A model generated the notes under the pieces. That model saw nothing but the letters and a program-made list of their open reading frames with translations. It did no database searches and was not told the DNA's origin. From a virus (Duplodnaviria; Heunggongvirae; Uroviricota; Caudoviricetes), in IMG/VR virus record IMGVR_UViG_2737471840_000007, positions 1 to 40,626 of that record: a stretch of 40,626 nt of DNA, one strand, 5' to 3'. The position numbers were made by a program, and so were the translations under genes. Of the stretch, positions 1-40,626 are shown in pieces. The stretch's first letter is position 1, and each line of letters starts with the position of its first letter.

Positions 1-1248
1 ATGGCACTGAATATTCCATTCAGAAATGCGTACTATCGTTTTGCATCCAGTTACTCATTTCTCTTTTTTATTTCCTGGTCGCTGTGGTGGTCGTTATACG
101 CTATTTGGCTGAAAGGACATCTAGGGTTGACAGGGACGGAATTAGGTACACTTTATTCGGTCAACCAGTTTACCAGCATTCTATTTATGATGTTCTACGG
201 CATCGTTCAGGATAAACTCGGTCTGAAGAAACCGCTCATCTGGTGTATGAGTTTCATCCTGGTCTTGACCGGACCGTTTATGATTTACGTTTATGAACCG
301 TTACTGCAAAGCAATTTTTCTGTAGGTCTAATTCTGGGGGCGCTATTTTTTGGCTTGGGGTATCTGGCGGGATGCGGTTTGCTTGATAGCTTCACCGAAA
401 AAATGGCGCGAAATTTTCATTTCGAATATGGAACAGCGCGCGCCTGGGGATCTTTTGGCTATGCTATTGGCGCGTTCTTTGCCGGCATATTTTTTAGTAT
501 CAGTCCCCATATCAACTTCTGGTTGGTCTCGCTATTTGGCGCTGTATTTATGATGATCAACATGCGTTTTAAAGATAAGGATCACCAGTGCGTAGCGGCA
601 GATGCGGGAGGGGTAAAAAAAGAGGATTTTATCGCAGTTTTCAAGGATCGAAACTTCTGGGTTTTCGTCATATTTATTGTGGGGACGTGGTCTTTCTATA
701 ACATTTTTGATCAACAACTTTTTCCTGTCTTTTATGCAGGTTTATTCGAATCACACGATGTAGGAACGCGCCTGTATGGTTATCTCAACTCATTCCAGGT
801 GGTACTCGAAGCGCTGTGCATGGCGATTATTCCTTTCTTTGTGAATCGGGTAGGGCCAAAAAATGCATTACTTATCGGAGTTGTGATTATGGCGTTGCGT
901 ATCCTTTCCTGCGCGCTGTTCGTTAACCCCTGGATTATTTCATTAGTGAAGTTGTTACATGCCATTGAGGTTCCACTTTGTGTCATATCCGTCTTCAAAT
1001 ACAGCGTGGCAAACTTTGATAAGCGCCTGTCGTCGACGATCTTTCTGATTGGTTTTCAAATTGCCAGTTCGCTTGGGATTGTGCTGCTTTCAACGCCGAC
1101 TGGGATACTCTTTGACCACGCAGGCTACCAGACAGTTTTCTTCGCAATTTCGGGTATTGTCTGCCTGATGTTGCTATTTGGCATTTTCTTCTTGAGTAAA
1201 AAACGCGAGCAAATAGTTATGGAAACGCCTGTACCTTCAGCAATATAG
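1..1248 (+). CDS. cscB: Sucrose:H+ symporter, LacY-family MFS permease
   Basis: 415-aa ORF, 12-TM hydrophobic profile; N-terminus MALNIPFRNAYYRFASSYSF and overall sequence match my recollection of E. coli CscB and align with LacY; not verified by search. Confidence 0.8.
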   Translation: MALNIPFRNAYYRFASSYSFLFFISWSLWWSLYAIWLKGHLGLTGTELGTLYSVNQFTSILFMMFYGIVQDKLGLKKPLIWCMSFILVLTGPFMIYVYEPLLQSNFSVGLILGALFFGLGYLAGCGLLDSFTEKMARNFHFEYGTARAWGSFGYAIGAFFAGIFFSISPHINFWLVSLFGAVFMMINMRFKDKDHQCVAADAGGVKKEDFIAVFKDRNFWVFVIFIVGTWSFYNIFDQQLFPVFYAGLFESHDVGTRLYGYLNSFQVVLEALCMAIIPFFVNRVGPKNALLIGVVIMALRILSCALFVNPWIISLVKLLHAIEVPLCVISVFKYSVANFDKRLSSTIFLIGFQIASSLGIVLLSTPTGILFDHAGYQTVFFAISGIVCLMLLFGIFFLSKKREQIVMETPVPSAI

Positions 1249-1689
1249 ACGTAAACTTTTTCCGGTTGTTGTCGATAGCTCTATATCCCTCAACCGGAAA
1301 ATAATAATAGTAAAATGCTTAGCCCTGCTAATAATCGCCTAATCCAAACGCCTCATTCATGTTCTGGTACAGTCGCTCAAATGTACTTCAGATGCGCGGT
1401 TCGCTGATTTCCAGGACATTGTCGTCATTCAGTGACCTGTCCCGTGTATCACGGTCCTGCGAATTCATCAAGGAATGCATTGCGGAGTGAAGTATCGAGT
1501 CACGCCATATTTCGCTATCAGGATTCTGTGTGATGGTTACATCGCCCGGCCCAGGGCTGTTTAGTCATCAGCGCTTTCTGACAGTGCTGAGATTTCAACC
1601 TGTTGCAGTAAAAATGAGTAGATATAAGGCAAGTGTGCTGCCAAACCCATCTTTTACGGGGTGAAGGTAGATTTCGTTTGAAGGGTATC

Positions 1690-1704
1690 TGGTGTCCCCT
1701 GCAG
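1690..1704 (-). repeat. att core: 15-nt copy of the 3' end of tRNA-Arg (argW), CTGCAGGGGACACCA on the minus strand
   Basis: Minus-strand sequence CTGCAGGGGACACCA equals the acceptor 3' end plus CCA of argW as I recall it; lies 73 nt beyond the excisionase stop at the host/phage boundary. Confidence 0.6.
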
Positions 1705-1777
1705 ACATCTACTTGAAGCGGCAGGGGATTGATTGGAATGGTGTTTTTTAGGTGTGAGAAATATTTTACCCGCTATT

Positions 1778-1978
1778 TTACCCATTGGCGCGGCTTAAGA
1801 GCTTATTTTTGAATTCACAATGGTCACGATATAACCATCTTGCGCGTCCGTGGATAACTTTGGCTTTTGGCAGGTCGCCGGACTTAATCCGGTCATAGAT
1901 GAAGGTTTTACCGAAGCCAGTATCGGCCATGATGAATTTCAAATCAACCAGGGAATCAGGCTGTAGTTCGTGTTGCAT
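1778..1978 (-). CDS. torI: Excisionase / recombination directionality factor, TorI-like (AlpA/Xis winged-helix family)
   Basis: 66-aa ORF MQHELQPDSLVDLKFIMADTGFGKTFIYDRIKSGDLPKAK... matches my recollection of E. coli TorI (KplE1/CPS-53 prophage at argW); GGAG 8-9 nt upstream of ATG. Confidence 0.75.
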   Translation of the reverse strand: MQHELQPDSLVDLKFIMADTGFGKTFIYDRIKSGDLPKAKVIHGRARWLYRDHCEFKNKLLSRANG

Positions 1979-1997
1979 GAGTGCTATCTCCGAATAG

Positions 1998-2013
1998 GGA
2001 ATCGAACCTGCAA
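1998..2013 (-). repeat. tRNA T-arm-like fragment TTGCAGGTTCGATTCC (matches the argW segment immediately 5' of the att core)
   Basis: 16-nt identity to the argW T-arm region as recalled; located 20 nt upstream of the torI start codon. Confidence 0.4.
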
Positions 2014-2020
2014 ATCAGGC

Positions 2021-2050
2021 AATAAAAAACCGCCATCAGGCGTTTTTGTG
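2021..2050. terminator. Bidirectional intrinsic terminator-like hairpin (AAAAAACCGCCATCAGGCGTTTTTG)
   Basis: Short GC stem CGCC/GGCG flanked by A-tract upstream and T-tract downstream on both strands. Confidence 0.5.
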
Positions 2051-2203
2051 TTCTTTCAGTTCTTCAATTCGAATATTGGTTACGTCTGCATGTGCTATCT
2101 GCGCCCATATCATCCAGTGGTTATAGCAGTCGTTGATGTCCTCTGCTTCGATAACTCTGTTGAATGGCTCTCCATTCCATTCACCTGTGACTCGGAAGTG
2201 CAT
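2036..2203 (-). CDS. Small hypothetical protein (55 aa)
   Basis: ORF MHFRVTGEWNGEPFNRVIEAEDINDCYNHW... with GGAG 7 nt upstream; below ORF-track size cutoff; sits between two terminator hairpins so expression is uncertain. Confidence 0.3.
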   Translation of the reverse strand: MHFRVTGEWNGEPFNRVIEAEDINDCYNHWMIWAQIAHADVTNIRIEELKEHKNA

Positions 2204-10066: not shown

Positions 10067-10783
<717 letters not shown>

Positions 10784-10871: not shown

Positions 10872-11081
<210 letters not shown>

Positions 11082-11218: not shown

Positions 11219-11515
11219 ATGACACAAGCAAGTTACAGCAAGCCAACACAGCGAGAAATTGATCGCGCAGAAACAGATTTACTCATCAACCTGTCAACGC
11301 TTACCCAGCGCGGTCTGGCAAAGATGATTGGCTGTCATGAATCGAAGATAAGCAGAACGGACTGGAGATTTATTGCTTCGGTCTTGTGTGCTTTCGGAAT
11401 GGCATCAGACATCAGTCCGATTAGCAGGGCTTTTAAGTATGCATTGGATGAAATCACAAAGAAAAAATCCCCGGCTGCCACCGAGGATTTTAAGCAAATT
11501 GATATGCAATTCTGA
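11219..11515 (+). CDS. cII: CII-like transcriptional activator
   Basis: 98-aa ORF; ...ESKISRTDWRF... and C-terminus KKKSPAATEDFKQIDMQF parallel lambda CII (...KSQISRWKRDW..., NKKRPAATERSEQIQMEF). Confidence 0.65.
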   Translation: MTQASYSKPTQREIDRAETDLLINLSTLTQRGLAKMIGCHESKISRTDWRFIASVLCAFGMASDISPISRAFKYALDEITKKKSPAATEDFKQIDMQF

Positions 11516-17885: not shown

Positions 17886-17960
17886 GGGTCAGTCGTATAA
17901 AGGTCATTACGGAAGGCTGTTAACCTTCTTATCGTGGTTCGAGCCCACGCTGTCCCGCCA
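17886..17960 (+). tRNA. tRNA-Asn-like (anticodon GTT), phage-encoded, some stem mismatches
   Basis: 75-nt cloverleaf folded by hand: acceptor GGGTCAG/CTGTCCC (1 mismatch), anticodon stem GAAGG/CCTTC, loop CTGTTAA, T-arm CGTGG-TTCGAGC-CCACG, 3' GCCA. Confidence 0.5.
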
Positions 17961-17965
17961 AACAT

Positions 17966-18041
17966 GCTGGTTTAGCTCCAATGGTAGAGCAGTCGCCTTG
18001 TAAGCGAATGGGTAGCGGTTCAAGTCCGTTAACCAGCACCA
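17966..18041 (+). tRNA. tRNA-Thr-like (anticodon TGT), phage-encoded
   Basis: 76-nt cloverleaf: perfect acceptor GCTGGTT/AACCAGC, D-arm GCTC-CAATGGTA-GAGC, anticodon loop CTTGTAA, T-loop TTCAAGT, 3' ACCA. Confidence 0.65.
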
Positions 18042-37856: not shown

Positions 37857-38210
37857 ATGCGATACCGTCGCGAAGATACTGAAGGCGATTACACTTTCGG
37901 CCAGGGTGACGATACTTTCCTTATCGACAGTCCGGAATGTGTCGCCCAGGCCGTAAAAACCCGTTTCGAGCTGTGGCGCGGTCAGTGGTTTCTCGATCTG
38001 ACGGAAGGCACGCCGTATGTTCAGTCAGTGCTTGGGAAGCAGCGATCAGATGTCTACATCCTGGCTATACGCGAACGCATACAGGATACACCTGGCGTTC
38101 TGTCGATTCTTTCCTTCGATACCAATTATGACGGCACCAGCCGTCGCGTCACCTTCACTTCCTCCATTGACACAATCTACGGCCAGACGACTGTAACAAG
38201 CGAGGCATAA
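37857..38210 (+). CDS. Baseplate protein (gpW / gp25-like, Mu gp46-position)
   Basis: 117-aa ORF; size and position. Confidence 0.5.
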   Translation: MRYRREDTEGDYTFGQGDDTFLIDSPECVAQAVKTRFELWRGQWFLDLTEGTPYVQSVLGKQRSDVYILAIRERIQDTPGVLSILSFDTNYDGTSRRVTFTSSIDTIYGQTTVTSEA

Positions 38211-39410
38211 ATGGCTTTGAACCTCGACACGCTGGGGCTATCGGCAACGGTAACCGCCCAGGGGATTAGTGCGCCTGATTACCAGACAATCCTAGATACA
38301 CTGACCAGCTATTTCAGGCAGATTTACGGTAGTGATGCCTACCTCGAACCAGACAGCAAAGACGGGCAGATGGTCGCGCTGGTGGCTCTTGCCGTGCATG
38401 ACGCTAACAACACCGCTATCGGGATCTACAACTCTTTTTCACCGACGACAGCGCAGGCCGCAGCGCTTAGCAGCAATGTGAAAATTAACGGGATCACGCG
38501 AAAAGTAGCGACAAACTCTACTGCTGACCTTCTGTTAACCGGTACGGCAGGCACGACTATCACGAATGGCTCCGCACGGGATAAAAACGGCATTATCTGG
38601 AATTTTCCCGCAAGTGTAGCGATCGGCGTTGATGGTACTGTGCTGGTGACGGCCACATGTGCGAATAGCGGTTCGGTTGCGGCGCTGGCCGGGACTATTA
38701 CCACTATCAACACCCCGACCCGAGGTTGGGTGTCGGTAACCAATCCAGTTGCGGCTACTGTCGGTTCACCAGCCGAAACCGACGCAGAGCTGCGCATTCG
38801 GCAGGGGCAAAGCGTCGCGCTACCATCGATCACACCGTTTGAAGGTGTCGACGGTGCTATCGCTAATGTTGCTGGCGTGACACGTCACAAACTATATGAG
38901 AACGACACTGGGGAAACCGACAGCAACGGGCTGCCGCCACACTCTATTTCCGCCATCGTCGATGGAGGGGATGTTACCGAGATAGCCCAGACCATCAGGG
39001 GGAATAAAGGGCAGGGAACCGCAACTTACGGTAAAACTTCTGTCACAGTGCCGGATACTTATGGTAATCCTCACGTCATCAGTTTTTCGCGCTCTACCGA
39101 TGTGCCTATTTTCGTAGCCATTACCCTGAAAGTTTTTACCGGGTATACCTCTCAAATCGGCGAGCAGATCAAACAGGCTGTTGCCGACTATATTAACGGC
39201 CTGACAATTGGCGACGACGTTCTGCTGAGCCGTATTTATTCCCCGGCAAACCTTGGCGTAGTGAGCGGCGGTAATGCCCGATATTACGACATTACCGACC
39301 TGCTGATCGGTAAGTCGTCTGGCAGCGTATCGGCATCAAATATTGATATTGCCTATGATGCTTCGGCGTCCTGTAGCACCGCGAATATCACAATCACGGT
39401 GACCTCATGA
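38211..39410 (+). CDS. Baseplate J-like protein (Mu gp47-position)
   Basis: 399-aa ORF; size and position in conserved baseplate order. Confidence 0.6.
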   Translation: MALNLDTLGLSATVTAQGISAPDYQTILDTLTSYFRQIYGSDAYLEPDSKDGQMVALVALAVHDANNTAIGIYNSFSPTTAQAAALSSNVKINGITRKVATNSTADLLLTGTAGTTITNGSARDKNGIIWNFPASVAIGVDGTVLVTATCANSGSVAALAGTITTINTPTRGWVSVTNPVAATVGSPAETDAELRIRQGQSVALPSITPFEGVDGAIANVAGVTRHKLYENDTGETDSNGLPPHSISAIVDGGDVTEIAQTIRGNKGQGTATYGKTSVTVPDTYGNPHVISFSRSTDVPIFVAITLKVFTGYTSQIGEQIKQAVADYINGLTIGDDVLLSRIYSPANLGVVSGGNARYYDITDLLIGKSSGSVSASNIDIAYDASASCSTANITITVTS

Positions 39411-40087
39411 GCAAATACACCGAACTGATCACTAACTACCACGCTACCAAGCCACTCTTTTTTGACCATATAGATCTGAGCACCCGCCCGCTGATTGATG
39501 TGTCCAGCACTATGTCAGGGCTTGTAACAGCCTTCGATATCGATACGGCGGTTGGCGTGCAACTCGATATCCTCGGCCTGTGGATTGGGCGTAGTCGTAT
39601 AGTCAGCCAGCCAATTAGCGGCGTTTATTTCAGCTGGGACACTGACGGGCTCGGATATGACCAGGGCATCTGGCAAGGGCCATATGATCCTGATTCTGGC
39701 TATACGACGCTGAGTGATGACACCTACCGCATCATTCTGAAAGCGAAAATCGCTATCAACAACTGGGACGGGCGGAACGACTCGCTGCCGCCCATTCTTG
39801 ACGCTGCGACCGCAGGCTCTGGCCTGAAGATGCAAATCGTCGACAACCAGGACATGACGATTTCGGTCTGGGTATTCCCCGAGGCTGATATTTCTGATGT
39901 ATCTCTCGAACTGATAGCTGCTATCAAACAGGGCTATCTCACGGTTAAAGCTGCTGGTGTATGGGCCGGTGATGTTGAAACGCCTTCGATAGAAACACCT
40001 TCCGAGGGCTCTAAATTCTTTGGGTTTGATATGGATAACGAATACATCGGCGGATTCGATGTAGGAGCATGGGGAGTATTACTCTGA
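39407..40087 (+). CDS. Tail protein (Mu gp48-position, gpI-like)
   Basis: 226-aa ORF, ATGA overlap with upstream gene. Confidence 0.5.
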
Positions 40088-40626
40088 TGGCAACAAATAA
40101 CTTTAAAGCGTTCGCGCTTGATCCGAATGCTAACGTCATGTCACAGGCTGACTGGGAAGCGCTTCCGGCGCTGCTGTCTGGCTTTACGGCCGGGAAAGCG
40201 TCCAGCGCCCAGGTAAACAAAGCCATCCGCCAGGCGACCACGATTGCTGCGCTGGTGGGGCAGTTTATTGCGAATTCCGGTGTGGACGCGCTGGATAATG
40301 CTGACGTTAACGGGCTGGTGACAAAGTTCACGAACGCGCTTACCACAAACCTTGGTTTGGGAACGGCATCGAAAAGGAATGTCGGGACGGGGGCAAATCA
40401 GATACCGGACATGTCCGCCTTCGCGTCAGGATCTGGGTATCAAAAACTACCGGGAGGATACATTTTGCAGTGGGGATCTGCGAATGCAGGTAACTCAGCA
40501 TCAACGGGAATATCTAATACGTTCCCAATTCCATTCCCGTCAGGGATTATCATCATTACGACCGGGCAGATTGACCCCTCTTATACTTCAGCACAACAGC
40601 CAGCATCAGTCGGTATTTCGTCGCCC
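40087..40626 (+). CDS. Tail fibre protein, N-terminal part (truncated by window end)
   Basis: Open frame from ATG at 40087 to window end (180 codons, [33 protein letters not shown]...), conserved tail-fibre N-terminal style; not in ORF track because no stop. Confidence 0.65.

Follow-up and report, generated by a model that had tools for sequence, protein, structure and literature searches.

The argW attachment junction of a lambdoid prophage and a conserved tRNA T-arm copy in its torI leader

The window analysed here is the complete 40,626-nt DNA of IMG/VR record IMGVR_UViG_2737471840_000007. At its left end, the host gene cscB and a short stretch of host DNA are followed by an attachment core, a phage P arm, the excisionase gene torI with its leader, a 16-nt copy of tRNA sequence, an intrinsic terminator, and the last gene of an early-left module (Table 1). 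Together these features form the attR junction of a lambdoid prophage integrated in argW beside the csc genes, whose recombination module is of the IntS/TorI type (KplE1/CPS-53, HK620, Sf6, CUS-3, Kapi1). It is the right-hand junction of an already known and well-studied type of E. coli prophage.

Table 1. Features at the left end of the window
Feature	Position	Strand	Basis or remark
cscB (sucrose permease), host flanking gene, 415-aa ORF	1..1248	+	Oligosaccharide MFS transporter in H15 and elppa10
Host DNA directly 3' of empty argW, no integrase	1249..1689		Identity to unoccupied loci
attR core CTGCAGGGGACACCA, IntS crossover segment	1690..1704	-	Host homology stops at 1704, phage homology begins at 1690
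P arm of attR	1705..1801	-	97-100% identical to HK620, Sf6 and HF4s
torI, recombination directionality factor (excisionase), 66 aa, reads towards the core	1778..1978	-	Match to PDB 1Z4H
torI leader CTATTCGGAGATAGCACTC, Shine-Dalgarno GGAG at 1991..1988	1979..1997	-	Read directly
Phage-borne copy of the argW T-arm (5' stem strand, T-loop, CC), TTGCAGGTTCGATTCC	1998..2013	-	Conserved torI-leader element, not an att junction
Linker ATTGCCTGAT; with the 16-mer TTGC it gives TTGC-N5-TTGC	2014..2023	-	HK620 'cII' site annotation
tL4-type intrinsic terminator, hairpin CGCC-ATCA-GGCG between A-run and T-run	2024..2047		tL4 in HK022 (X51962)
55-aa early-left gene (ORF55 type), last of the lambdoid module abutting the recombination module	2036..2203	-	ORF

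On the host side, positions 1250..1704 match the unoccupied argW loci of other strains at 100% identity, and the flank that follows ACCA is that of strain H15. The csc regulon is located between the argW region and dsdX (PMC3032704). The original prediction of an att core at this point was borne out: the minus strand carries the last 15 nt of argW, which correspond to the published KplE1/HK620/Sf6 core CTGCAGGGGACACCAT without its final T (PMC2951348; HK620 'attP core' feature). Islands and prophages inserted in tRNA genes carry at their attR end a direct repeat of the 3' part of the tRNA, a rule of Reiter et al. (1989) as relayed in PMC8787464, and the core fits it. The second tRNA fragment that had been proposed matches the argW T-arm segment preceding the core at all 16 positions. 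Uninterrupted argW in strain H15 reads ...GGGCTAATTGCAGGTTCGATTCCTGCAGGGGACACCA and then GATACCC, so the two fragments are consecutive in the tRNA and have one C in common. Both are single-copy in the window, even with two mismatches allowed, and shuffled sequences gave 0.03-0.04 matches. The chance of finding a 16-mer from the neighboring tRNA segment within 400 bp and in the same orientation is about 1e-7.

No integrase lies at the cscB end, as anticipated; only ORFs of 43-44 aa occur between cscB and torI. The expected KplE1-type layout, with intS beside an intact argW at the end opposite to torI, is the published arrangement (PMC2951348, PMC8787464), and it is found in the relative elppa10, whose junction is 98.8% identical. 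The window stops before attL, and the far-end intS and tRNA-Arg were read in elppa10 only. Among RefSeq complete genomes, none reached 99% identity to the right-hand part of the prophage, the best covering 83-87% of the query at 94-96%. The phage order in this module is terminator, torI, P arm, core, P' arm, and intS. Given this gene order, integration at the 15-16-bp core parts torI from intS: torI remains at attR, as here, and intS would come to lie at attL, beside the reconstituted argW and outside the window.

The torI product was correctly recognized just inside the core. It aligns along its entire length with PDB 1Z4H (Tor inhibition protein; E = 6.6e-43), and RefSeq names its homolog TorI. 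TorI-dependent excision, which yields attP and attB, has been demonstrated for KplE1 (PMC2951348, PMC3509656). Putative arm repeats of the GGGTAAAA type are present between torI and the core: two putative IntS arm-type repeats TTTTACCC at 1762..1784 overlap the torI stop codon and coincide with the HK620-annotated attP repeat (HK620 positions 1441-1463, which map to 1762-1784), and the pattern GGGTAAA-N-GGGTAAAA was kept in every genus examined. The idea that an att arm embeds torI was right only at the margin. The repeats overlap the last torI codons, but the published attR substrate shown to recombine in vitro measures 135 bp and ends at primer attR-IHF2 (PMC3509656). This primer, CTCTTAAGCCGCGCCAATGG, maps to 1782-1801, about 24 bp inside torI, and the substrate stops about 200 bp short of the 16-mer. 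The 16-mer is consequently not needed for recombination in vitro.

Upstream of torI, the GGAGAT in the leader is conserved across genera, and a sigma-70 scan returned no promoter near the gene. Just beyond the 16-mer lies the terminator that closes the early-left operon. Its hairpin is annotated as a terminator in phage 434 and HK140; a consensus terminator scan missed it because its G-C stem has four pairs only. Weak Rfam matches to STnc130 and STnc420 (E = 0.03-0.05, far below the gathering score) stem mainly from this same hairpin. The terminator is also a mosaic joint, where at least three different upstream modules meet the T-run. From 2016-2024 on, the DNA is 93-97% identical to HK022, 434, Stx1a phages, and CUS-3, and the 55-aa early-left ORF has no NCBIfam match.

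Comparison with known elements separates what is shared from what is particular to this prophage. KplE1 (CPS-53) of K-12 has the same core, TorI protein, P arm, and 16-mer, with 97.3% identity over 1690..2028 and intS at the other end, beside argW (PMC2951348). Differences lie in the host flank, which here is the csc side and therefore places a G after ACCA and shortens the repeat to 15 nt instead of 16, and in the module upstream of the terminator, which is of the ORF55/ASCH type here and holds yfdT in KplE1. This prophage also looks complete and lambdoid, whereas KplE1 is a 10-kb remnant. The P22-like, argW-integrating phages HK620, Sf6, HF4s, and Kapi1 display the order torI (hkaC / gp18), attP core, and int, with the 16-mer in the leader and 96-100% identity from 1690 to a point between 2083 and 2300. 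These are podoviruses, whereas the 37.2-40.6 kb stretch of this prophage holds baseplate genes of a contractile tail, and only the recombination and early-left modules are held in common.

The 16-mer lies upstream of torI in the free phages HK620 (positions 1677-1692), Sf6, HF4s (100% identical), and Kapi1, as well as in K-12 KplE1 and S88, and it is intact in 115 of the 121 torI leaders listed from viral contigs. The sequence is not specific to argW, since viral contigs carry it in the T-arms of other, unrelated tRNA genes; its assignment to argW follows from the adjoining argW core and from the host. At 1998..2013, ARAGORN reports no tRNA, and Rfam gives no tRNA match even at E <= 10. Relative to the rule for tRNA-inserted elements, the 16-mer departs in position: the tRNA segment it copies is 5' of the crossover, and the copy sits within the phage, with a gene between itself and the core.

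A split tRNA had initially suggested nested or sequential integration, in which two att junctions would result from successive argW insertions in this chromosome, the 16-mer would be the older remnant, and torI would be trapped between them. The consecutive tRNA pieces in direct orientation, about 290 bp apart, invite this reading, and the CUS-3 GenBank record (CP000711) treats the identical 16-mer as 'attL core / attR core'. Against it stands the order of 16-mer, torI, and core, which recurs in free phages, in KplE1 of K-12, and in the modules of other genera, so that the arrangement arrives with the phage. Homology to HK620 is unbroken from 1690 to 2083, across the 16-mer, which also lies inside continuous homology to Sf6 and HF4s, contrary to what a boundary between two elements would show. 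The CUS-3 annotation itself looks mis-delimited, since in S88 (a K1 genome with the same prophage type, used for this comparison in place of RS218 itself) the CUS-3-type prophage does not end at the '16-bp core' but goes on to include torI and the true core. At the CUS-3 attL, the 16-mer is argW itself, with the real core next to it. On the right, the record reaches only as far as the leader copy, so that torI, the P arm, and the true core fall outside it. The designation of the 16-mer as att core is apparently an error, which cut torI off the record. Successive integrations are therefore hardly credible as the source of the split, and the locus as a whole is very probably best explained as an attR junction accompanied by a phage-borne 16-mer in the leader, not as two junctions.

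What the 16-mer does in the leader is a separate matter, on which its conservation bears most directly. In torI leaders from 10 genera, the 11-mer GGTTCGATTCC has a pairwise identity of 0.968; for torI itself, the corresponding values are 0.831 at codon positions 1+2, 0.567 at position 3, and 0.51 at fourfold sites. The segment (C)AGGTTCGATTCC is retained by ten genera with differing flanks, and one further lineage retains cTTCGATTCC only. The sample comprises 10-12 lineages picked for having the motif, and torI leaders are either nearly intact in the motif or unrelated. The motif is absent in about a dozen other lineages (Klebsiella, Dryocola, Cronobacter, Rahnella, Mixta, several Pantoea, Tatumella, Arsenophonus, and Proteus); these do without it, and it is hence dispensable for recombination. 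Adding loci through TorI alignment in viral contigs returned only proteins that were 100% identical. Because an identity of 0.97 compares with 0.51 at torI fourfold sites, the T-loop part (GGTTCGATTCC, at minimum TTCGATTCC) looks to be under purifying selection, and would be a working cis element in place of a decaying relic. No report of GGTTCGATTCC conservation in torI leaders was found in the searchable literature.

This conservation is the main argument against a neutral fossil left by the event that built the module, be it an aberrant excision that carried off the 3' half of argW or an insertion of torI into a longer tRNA-like attP. Such an origin would agree with the marginal location of the 16-mer, which borders the recombination module and is 10-15 nt away from the mosaic joint, with the many lineages that lack the motif, and with Serratia and one Pantoea, in which the argW match extends 2 nt further (CCTG). 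The Cedecea and Serratia leaders also resemble the remaining tRNA 3' end (p = 0.025 and 0.097). However, this likeness is not significant overall: local alignment against shuffles gave p = 0.025-0.92 per genus and about 0.1 combined, and descent of the whole leader from a degenerate copy of the full tRNA 3' half was not established. An unsplit attP, with 31 contiguous nt and no preceding argW, was absent among the 121 matches listed, all 14 contiguous cases being real argW genes. Considering that the 11-mer surpasses both synonymous (0.51) and non-synonymous (0.83) identity in torI, neutrality appears rather doubtful. HK620 and Sf6 annotations propose instead a pI promoter activated by cII on TTGC-CTGAT-TTGC (HK620 'promoter, phage integration' at 1664-1702 and 'cII protein' site at 1689-1701; Sf6 'pI' feature), with a start near the torI ribosome-binding site that would therefore supply Int without TorI during lysogenization. 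The analogy is with lambda, where pI lies inside xis and, together with sib retroregulation, answers the same problem, in that integration calls for Int alone and excision for Int and Xis together; the pI-like promoter in the HK620 annotation was placed by its authors on this very leader spot. This prophage does encode a cII protein (11219..11515), but its own pRE-like site inside cII (11228..11241) shows the canonical TTGC-N6-TTGC and not the N5 spacing of the leader. Across the window, 10 instances of the pattern compare with an expectation of 7.0, the promoter scan gave no sigma-70-like -10, and the conserved part is the T-loop, which would be promoter spacer. Moreover, in 27 of the 121 relatives listed from viral contigs the first TTGC reads TTAC (ATTACC, with A in place of G), and other genera lack this TTGC. 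Unlike in lambda, xis and int are separated by attP in this module, int is transcribed from an autoregulated promoter of its own in attL (PMC2951348), and cII-site features are missing at the leader. With chance-level frequency, polymorphism, and poor retention across genera, the cII/pI site was judged weak, and this function is unlikely.

Two other functions would act on torI itself. In an RNA-based control, the motif would serve in a read-through transcript as a T-arm mimic hairpin or as an anti-Shine-Dalgarno (UUCC/GGAG) that limits torI translation. Expression of torI reportedly proceeds by read-through and is limited by Rho termination, a T-arm-like hairpin is possible in Edwardsiella, P. 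stewartii, and Serratia (GACAGG/CCTGTC, CAGG/CCTG), and RNAalifold pairs the motif with the ribosome-binding region. Nevertheless, the consensus fold reaches only -3.7 kcal/mol with a covariation term of -0.15, ten single-sequence z-scores range from -1.9 to +0.3 with most near 0, and the E. coli leader makes 2-3 T-stem pairs only. A stable fold was rejected on these grounds, and a role as RNA element seems quite unlikely. An operator through which TorI autoregulates its own gene via GTTCG in the T-loop draws on the five TorI sites mapped in attL (pattern yAGTTCGY), which center on GTTCG, GATCG, or GTCCG (PMC2951348), and on a second xTTCG located 12 nt downstream, beside the ribosome-binding site, in several genera. 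Against a weight matrix that combines 24 P'-arm sites from 5 lineages, though, the leader motif scores -1.5 bits against 7.8-14.6 for real sites, and 3% of random 12-mers from the window score as well; one lineage carries CTTCG instead of GTTCG. A canonical TorI site was accordingly rejected, and TorI autoregulation through the motif is improbable indeed.

A further proposal takes the likeness to argW at face value and assigns the motif to the integrase. If the core is read as GATGTC-TGCAGGG-GACACC (C and C' on either side of a 7-bp overlap), TTCGATTCC would be the left half-site of attB, and this is exactly the leader motif. After 7 nt, the motif is followed by GAGAT(A/G) in 8 of 10 genera, and beside the core the P arm has TT(C/A)GATGT in most genera as opposed to TTCGATTCC in argW. 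The leader motif would then be a pseudo-core that IntS occupies without recombining, as the overlap sequence differs, and IntS bound there would keep down the amount of excisionase made by read-through in the lysogen. GAGAT doubles as the ribosome-binding site, and its conservation and spacing may thus have no connection with IntS. An IntS attB-type half-site that acts on torI expression is the mechanism favored here, although a tentative one that falls well short of an even chance. The fuller proposal, in which the argW T-loop copy is a selectively maintained pseudo-att site, bound by IntS or another recombination protein and restraining the excisionase in the lysogen, is more speculative still.

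Independently of function, the motif probably came from argW originally, for instance through an old aberrant excision that built the torI-attP-intS layout. Such an event would predate the spread of the module across Enterobacterales, and the element could be its visible trace, that is, of the aberrant excision behind the xis-attP-int gene order.

As one more instance of a well-studied argW prophage module, the junction itself changes nothing. The 16-bp T-arm repeat, on the other hand, is a trap in prophage delimitation that can be mistaken for a second insertion, and it is apparently the reason why the excisionase gene is missing from the CUS-3 reference record. Excision in the IntS/TorI module is thought to depend only on the timing of TorI production, and the torI promoter has been called 'non-characterized' (PMC2951348). 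A motif beside torI that is better conserved than the coding positions therefore represents a cheap and well-defined target for mutagenesis in HK620 and KplE1. If the pseudo-att proposal were true, the integrase would control the directionality factor, in addition to the published control of intS by IntS and TorI.

Both argW fragments that the original prediction placed on either side of torI are genuine, not chance matches. The uninterrupted argW of strain H15 reads GTCCTCTTAGTTAAATGGATATAACGAGCCCCTCCTAAGGGCTAATTGCAGGTTCGATTCCTGCAGGGGACACCA and then GATACCCTTCAAACG, so the two fragments are exact pieces that lie consecutively in the tRNA with one C in common. Each has a single match in the 40.6-kb window with two mismatches allowed, against an expectation of 0.03-0.04, and the host DNA past ACCA is the same as in H15. 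ARAGORN found no tRNA at the fragments, and no Rfam tRNA match was obtained there even at E <= 10. The gene between them does encode a TorI-like excisionase, or recombination directionality factor (RDF), and the 440 bp after cscB contain no ORF longer than 44 aa, in line with the proposed absence of an integrase on that side.

Homology to phage records begins at 1690; identity is 100% for HF4s and 96-98% for HK620, Sf6, Kapi1, N7, and others. The host/phage overlap of 15 nt corresponds to the core published for KplE1, HK620, and Sf6, CTGCAGGGGACACCAT (PMC2951348, PMC8787464), less one base, since G is the first base of the flank on the csc side. In the published layout, attP lies between xis/torI and int (PMC2951348, PMC8787464), and both genes therefore land at opposite prophage ends. 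The anticipated KplE1-type layout agrees with this order and with the far end in strain elppa10, whose junction is 98.8% identical and whose ~44-kb prophage terminates in intS, tRNA-Arg, and yfdC; the prophage studied here runs off the window before that end, with baseplate and tail-fibre genes last. The csc regulon has been positioned between the argW region and dsdX (PMC3032704). All of these features (junction, core, TorI, and the lack of an integrase) are real, and the literature already describes them well. In the P arm (window 1705-1735; L216-L244 in other genera), TCCCCTGC lies ~18 nt upstream of the core's GCAGGGGA; the two make up an inverted repeat that most genera keep and whose pairing resembles the two acceptor-stem strands of argW. 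In Hafnia (L237, 1201-2601) and Cedecea (L241, 1201-2601), the core, the P' arm, and an integrase gene come immediately after torI, which makes an uninterrupted attP; each contig is therefore a tandem array or else a phage that is unintegrated or circular.

This prophage is a mosaic. At 37215-40626 it has genes of the contractile-tail type (V/W/J-type baseplate genes and one for a tail fibre), with a best RefSeq match of only 94-96%, whereas its recombination and early-left modules are of the P22-like podovirus kind. Among complete RefSeq genomes, no close match to its right-hand part was found. Phage-borne tRNA-Asn (GTT) and tRNA-Thr (TGT) genes lie 5 bp apart at 17886-18041, and two tRNAs have been described just before the lysis genes of Kapi1 (PMC8787464).

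The original prediction misread the second tRNA piece, which does exist but is a conserved stretch of the phage's own torI leader. HK620 homology is unbroken from 1690 to 2083, spanning this 16-mer, which lies at 1677-1692 in HK620, upstream of hkaC (= torI), and occurs also in K-12 KplE1 (after yfdT) and the K1 strain S88. Among 121 torI leaders from viral contigs, retrieved by a search anchored on the torI start and not on the 16-mer, 115 carry it intact and the other six differ by one substitution each. In vitro, recombination proceeds on a 135-bp attR substrate that ends at primer CTCTTAAGCCGCGCCAATGG (PMC3509656). This primer maps to window 1782..1801, with the 16-mer 200 bp further in, so excision in vitro does not require the 16-mer. 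The split tRNA had suggested nested or sequential integration at argW; for this chromosome that reading is unsupported, as the 16-mer travels as phage DNA with torI. The other suggestion, an att arm embedding torI, survives only in that arm-type repeats at 1762..1784 overlap the last torI codons.

Features of the junction, the torI leader, and the cI, cro, and cII genes (window coordinates)
Feature	Position	Strand	Remarks
cscB	1..1248		Upstream of junction
Core fragment	1690..1704	minus	CTGCAGGGGACACCA, read directly
torI ORF	1978..1778	minus	66 aa; full-length match to solved TorI structure 1Z4H
19-nt leader with GGAG	Between 16-mer and torI	minus	
16-mer	1998..2013	minus	TTGCAGGTTCGATTCC, read directly
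ATTGCCTGAT	Between terminator hairpin and 16-mer	minus	
tL4-type terminator hairpin	2047..2024	minus	Second in order
ORF55-type gene	2203..2036	minus	First in order
cI	10067-10780	minus	
cro	10881-11081		
pRE-like TTGC-N6-TTGC	11228-11241	minus	Canonical; within 5' end of cII, towards cI
cII	11219-11515		

HK022, 434, Stx1a phages, and HK140, which are lambdoid phages with other integration modules, match the window from 2016-2024 rightwards. Relatives carry at least three unrelated upstream modules, each joined at the T-run of its own terminator, so conservation of the recombination module starts with the 16-mer. The predicted hairpin at 2024-2047 could terminate transcription in either direction. 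Two sub-threshold Rfam matches within 1928-2075 are centred on it, STnc130 (plus strand, 29 bits vs 55) and STnc420 (minus strand, 24.6 bits vs 70), both Salmonella sRNAs. An antisense RNA may run over the torI start.

Previous annotations of the 16-mer conflict. The CUS-3 record (CP000711) gives exactly this sequence the labels 'attL core' and 'attR core' and stops at it, its boundaries (L001:1-16 and L004:1-16) being the 16-bp T-arm repeat as opposed to the true 15/16-bp core. In the CUS-3 attL, the 16-mer is argW itself, followed by the real core and an HK620-like P' arm. The S88 prophage is of the CUS-3 type (neuO and the endosialidase gene are 100% identical), and the S88 sequence (L245:820-1200) continues directly past the 16-mer into torI, the P arm, CTGCAGGGGACACCAT, and then dsdC. 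Judged from S88, the CUS-3 record appears to have had its ends set at the wrong repeat and to be short by ~310 bp, which include the excisionase gene, the P arm, and the true core. The HK620 and Sf6 records place a putative integration promoter pI and a cII site, TTGC-CTGAT-TTGC, overlapping the 16-mer.

Loci from other genera were found through TorI homologues of 62-86% identity. Ten genera or lineages (Escherichia, Enterobacter, Citrobacter, Atlantibacter, Cedecea, Serratia, Hafnia, Edwardsiella, and two Pantoea lineages) keep (C)AGGTTCGATTCC ~20 nt before the start codon within differing flanks, matching the argW 16-mer at 12-16 of 16 positions. Mean pairwise identity reaches 0.968 for the 11-mer GGTTCGATTCC and 0.854 for the whole 16-mer; torI itself gives 0.831 at codon positions 1+2, 0.567 at position 3, and 0.51 at shared fourfold-degenerate sites. 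One more lineage retains only cTTCGATTCC. The motif is wholly absent in about a dozen lineages, where torI usually abuts or overlaps an upstream gene, and Dryocola has a clean deletion between ATTGCCT and the ribosome-binding site; half-decayed versions were not seen among the lineages examined. This either-kept-or-absent pattern, together with the high 11-mer identity, indicates purifying selection where the element exists, in a small sample chosen by eye, and likewise indicates that the motif would be dispensable for recombination. No earlier report of this conservation was found within the literature open to search; it is a modest observation, as yet without a mechanism. The Enterobacter leader (L216, 2150-2213) has a local duplication, GCTCGATTC-ATAGG-TTCGATTTC, with two TCGATT units. 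A divergent TorI module (68% identity; L330:620-700) has GTGTTCGACTCCTC ~60 nt before the torI start; this motif is T-loop-like (TTCGACT) but not of the same type as the E. coli element.

The element most probably derives from argW, given the 16/16 identity in E. coli, the argW-specific T-loop TTCGATT, and, in Serratia and one Pantoea, a longer match that reaches CCTG. Its position at the edge of the module would be accounted for if an aberrant excision from a prophage remnant had carried off torI-P-core along with the argW 3' half. Outside the element, the leader has no significant similarity to the tRNA 3' end, and no unsplit 31-nt attP occurs among the matches listed (n=121).

Several functions were weighed for the motif. 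RNA structure finds little in its favor: RNAalifold gives -3.7 kcal/mol with no covariation, single-sequence folds of ten leaders have z-scores from -1.9 to +0.3, and a T-arm-like hairpin can be drawn in some genera (Edwardsiella GACAGG/CCTGTC) but not in E. coli. The annotated cII site at 2010-2022 has an N5 spacing, whereas the phage's own pRE-like site, our yardstick, has N6 and lies in the arrangement expected of pRE. The pattern also occurs at chance frequency in the window (10 found vs 7.0 expected), the first TTGC of the annotated site reads TTAC in 27 of the 121 relatives, and other genera do not keep the TTGC repeat while they do keep the supposed spacer. Mapped TorI sites centre on GTTCG, GATCG, or GTCCG (PMC2951348), and TorI-type sites were recovered in the P' arms of five lineages. 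As a canonical TorI operator the leader motif was rejected, scoring -1.5 bits on a weight matrix built from 24 P'-arm sites that themselves score 7.8-14.6, and one lineage reads CTTCG. In attL (CUS-3 L004:1-130; HK620 L002; L074, L097, L124), the argW T-loop GTTCG lies 31 nt before TorI site I1, itself 20 nt before I2. Both spacings come close to whole helical turns; the T-loop of the tRNA might therefore offer TorI one more site, restricted to attL and attB.

According to Menouni et al. in 2013, torI is reportedly reached by read-through that is limited by Rho termination. A scan found no sigma-70-type promoter near torI, and PtorI has been called 'non-characterized' (PMC2951348). The likeliest role of the leader motif, though a doubtful one, is that of a pseudo-core for IntS, the integrase of the same module. 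The attP core can be read as GATGTC, TGCAGGG, and GACACC, a 5/6 inverted repeat flanking a 7-bp overlap as in a classical core; in other genera the left core site is TT(C/A)GATGT. The attB left half-site would then be TTCGATTCC, exactly the invariant part of the leader motif. GAGAT(A/G), also the ribosome-binding site, follows 7 nt after the motif in 8 of the 10 genera. IntS would bind the pseudo-core without recombination, because the overlap differs, and in the lysogen would impede transcription that reads through into torI. If true, an IntS pseudo-core would fit the published view that RDF expression governs excision (PMC2951348).
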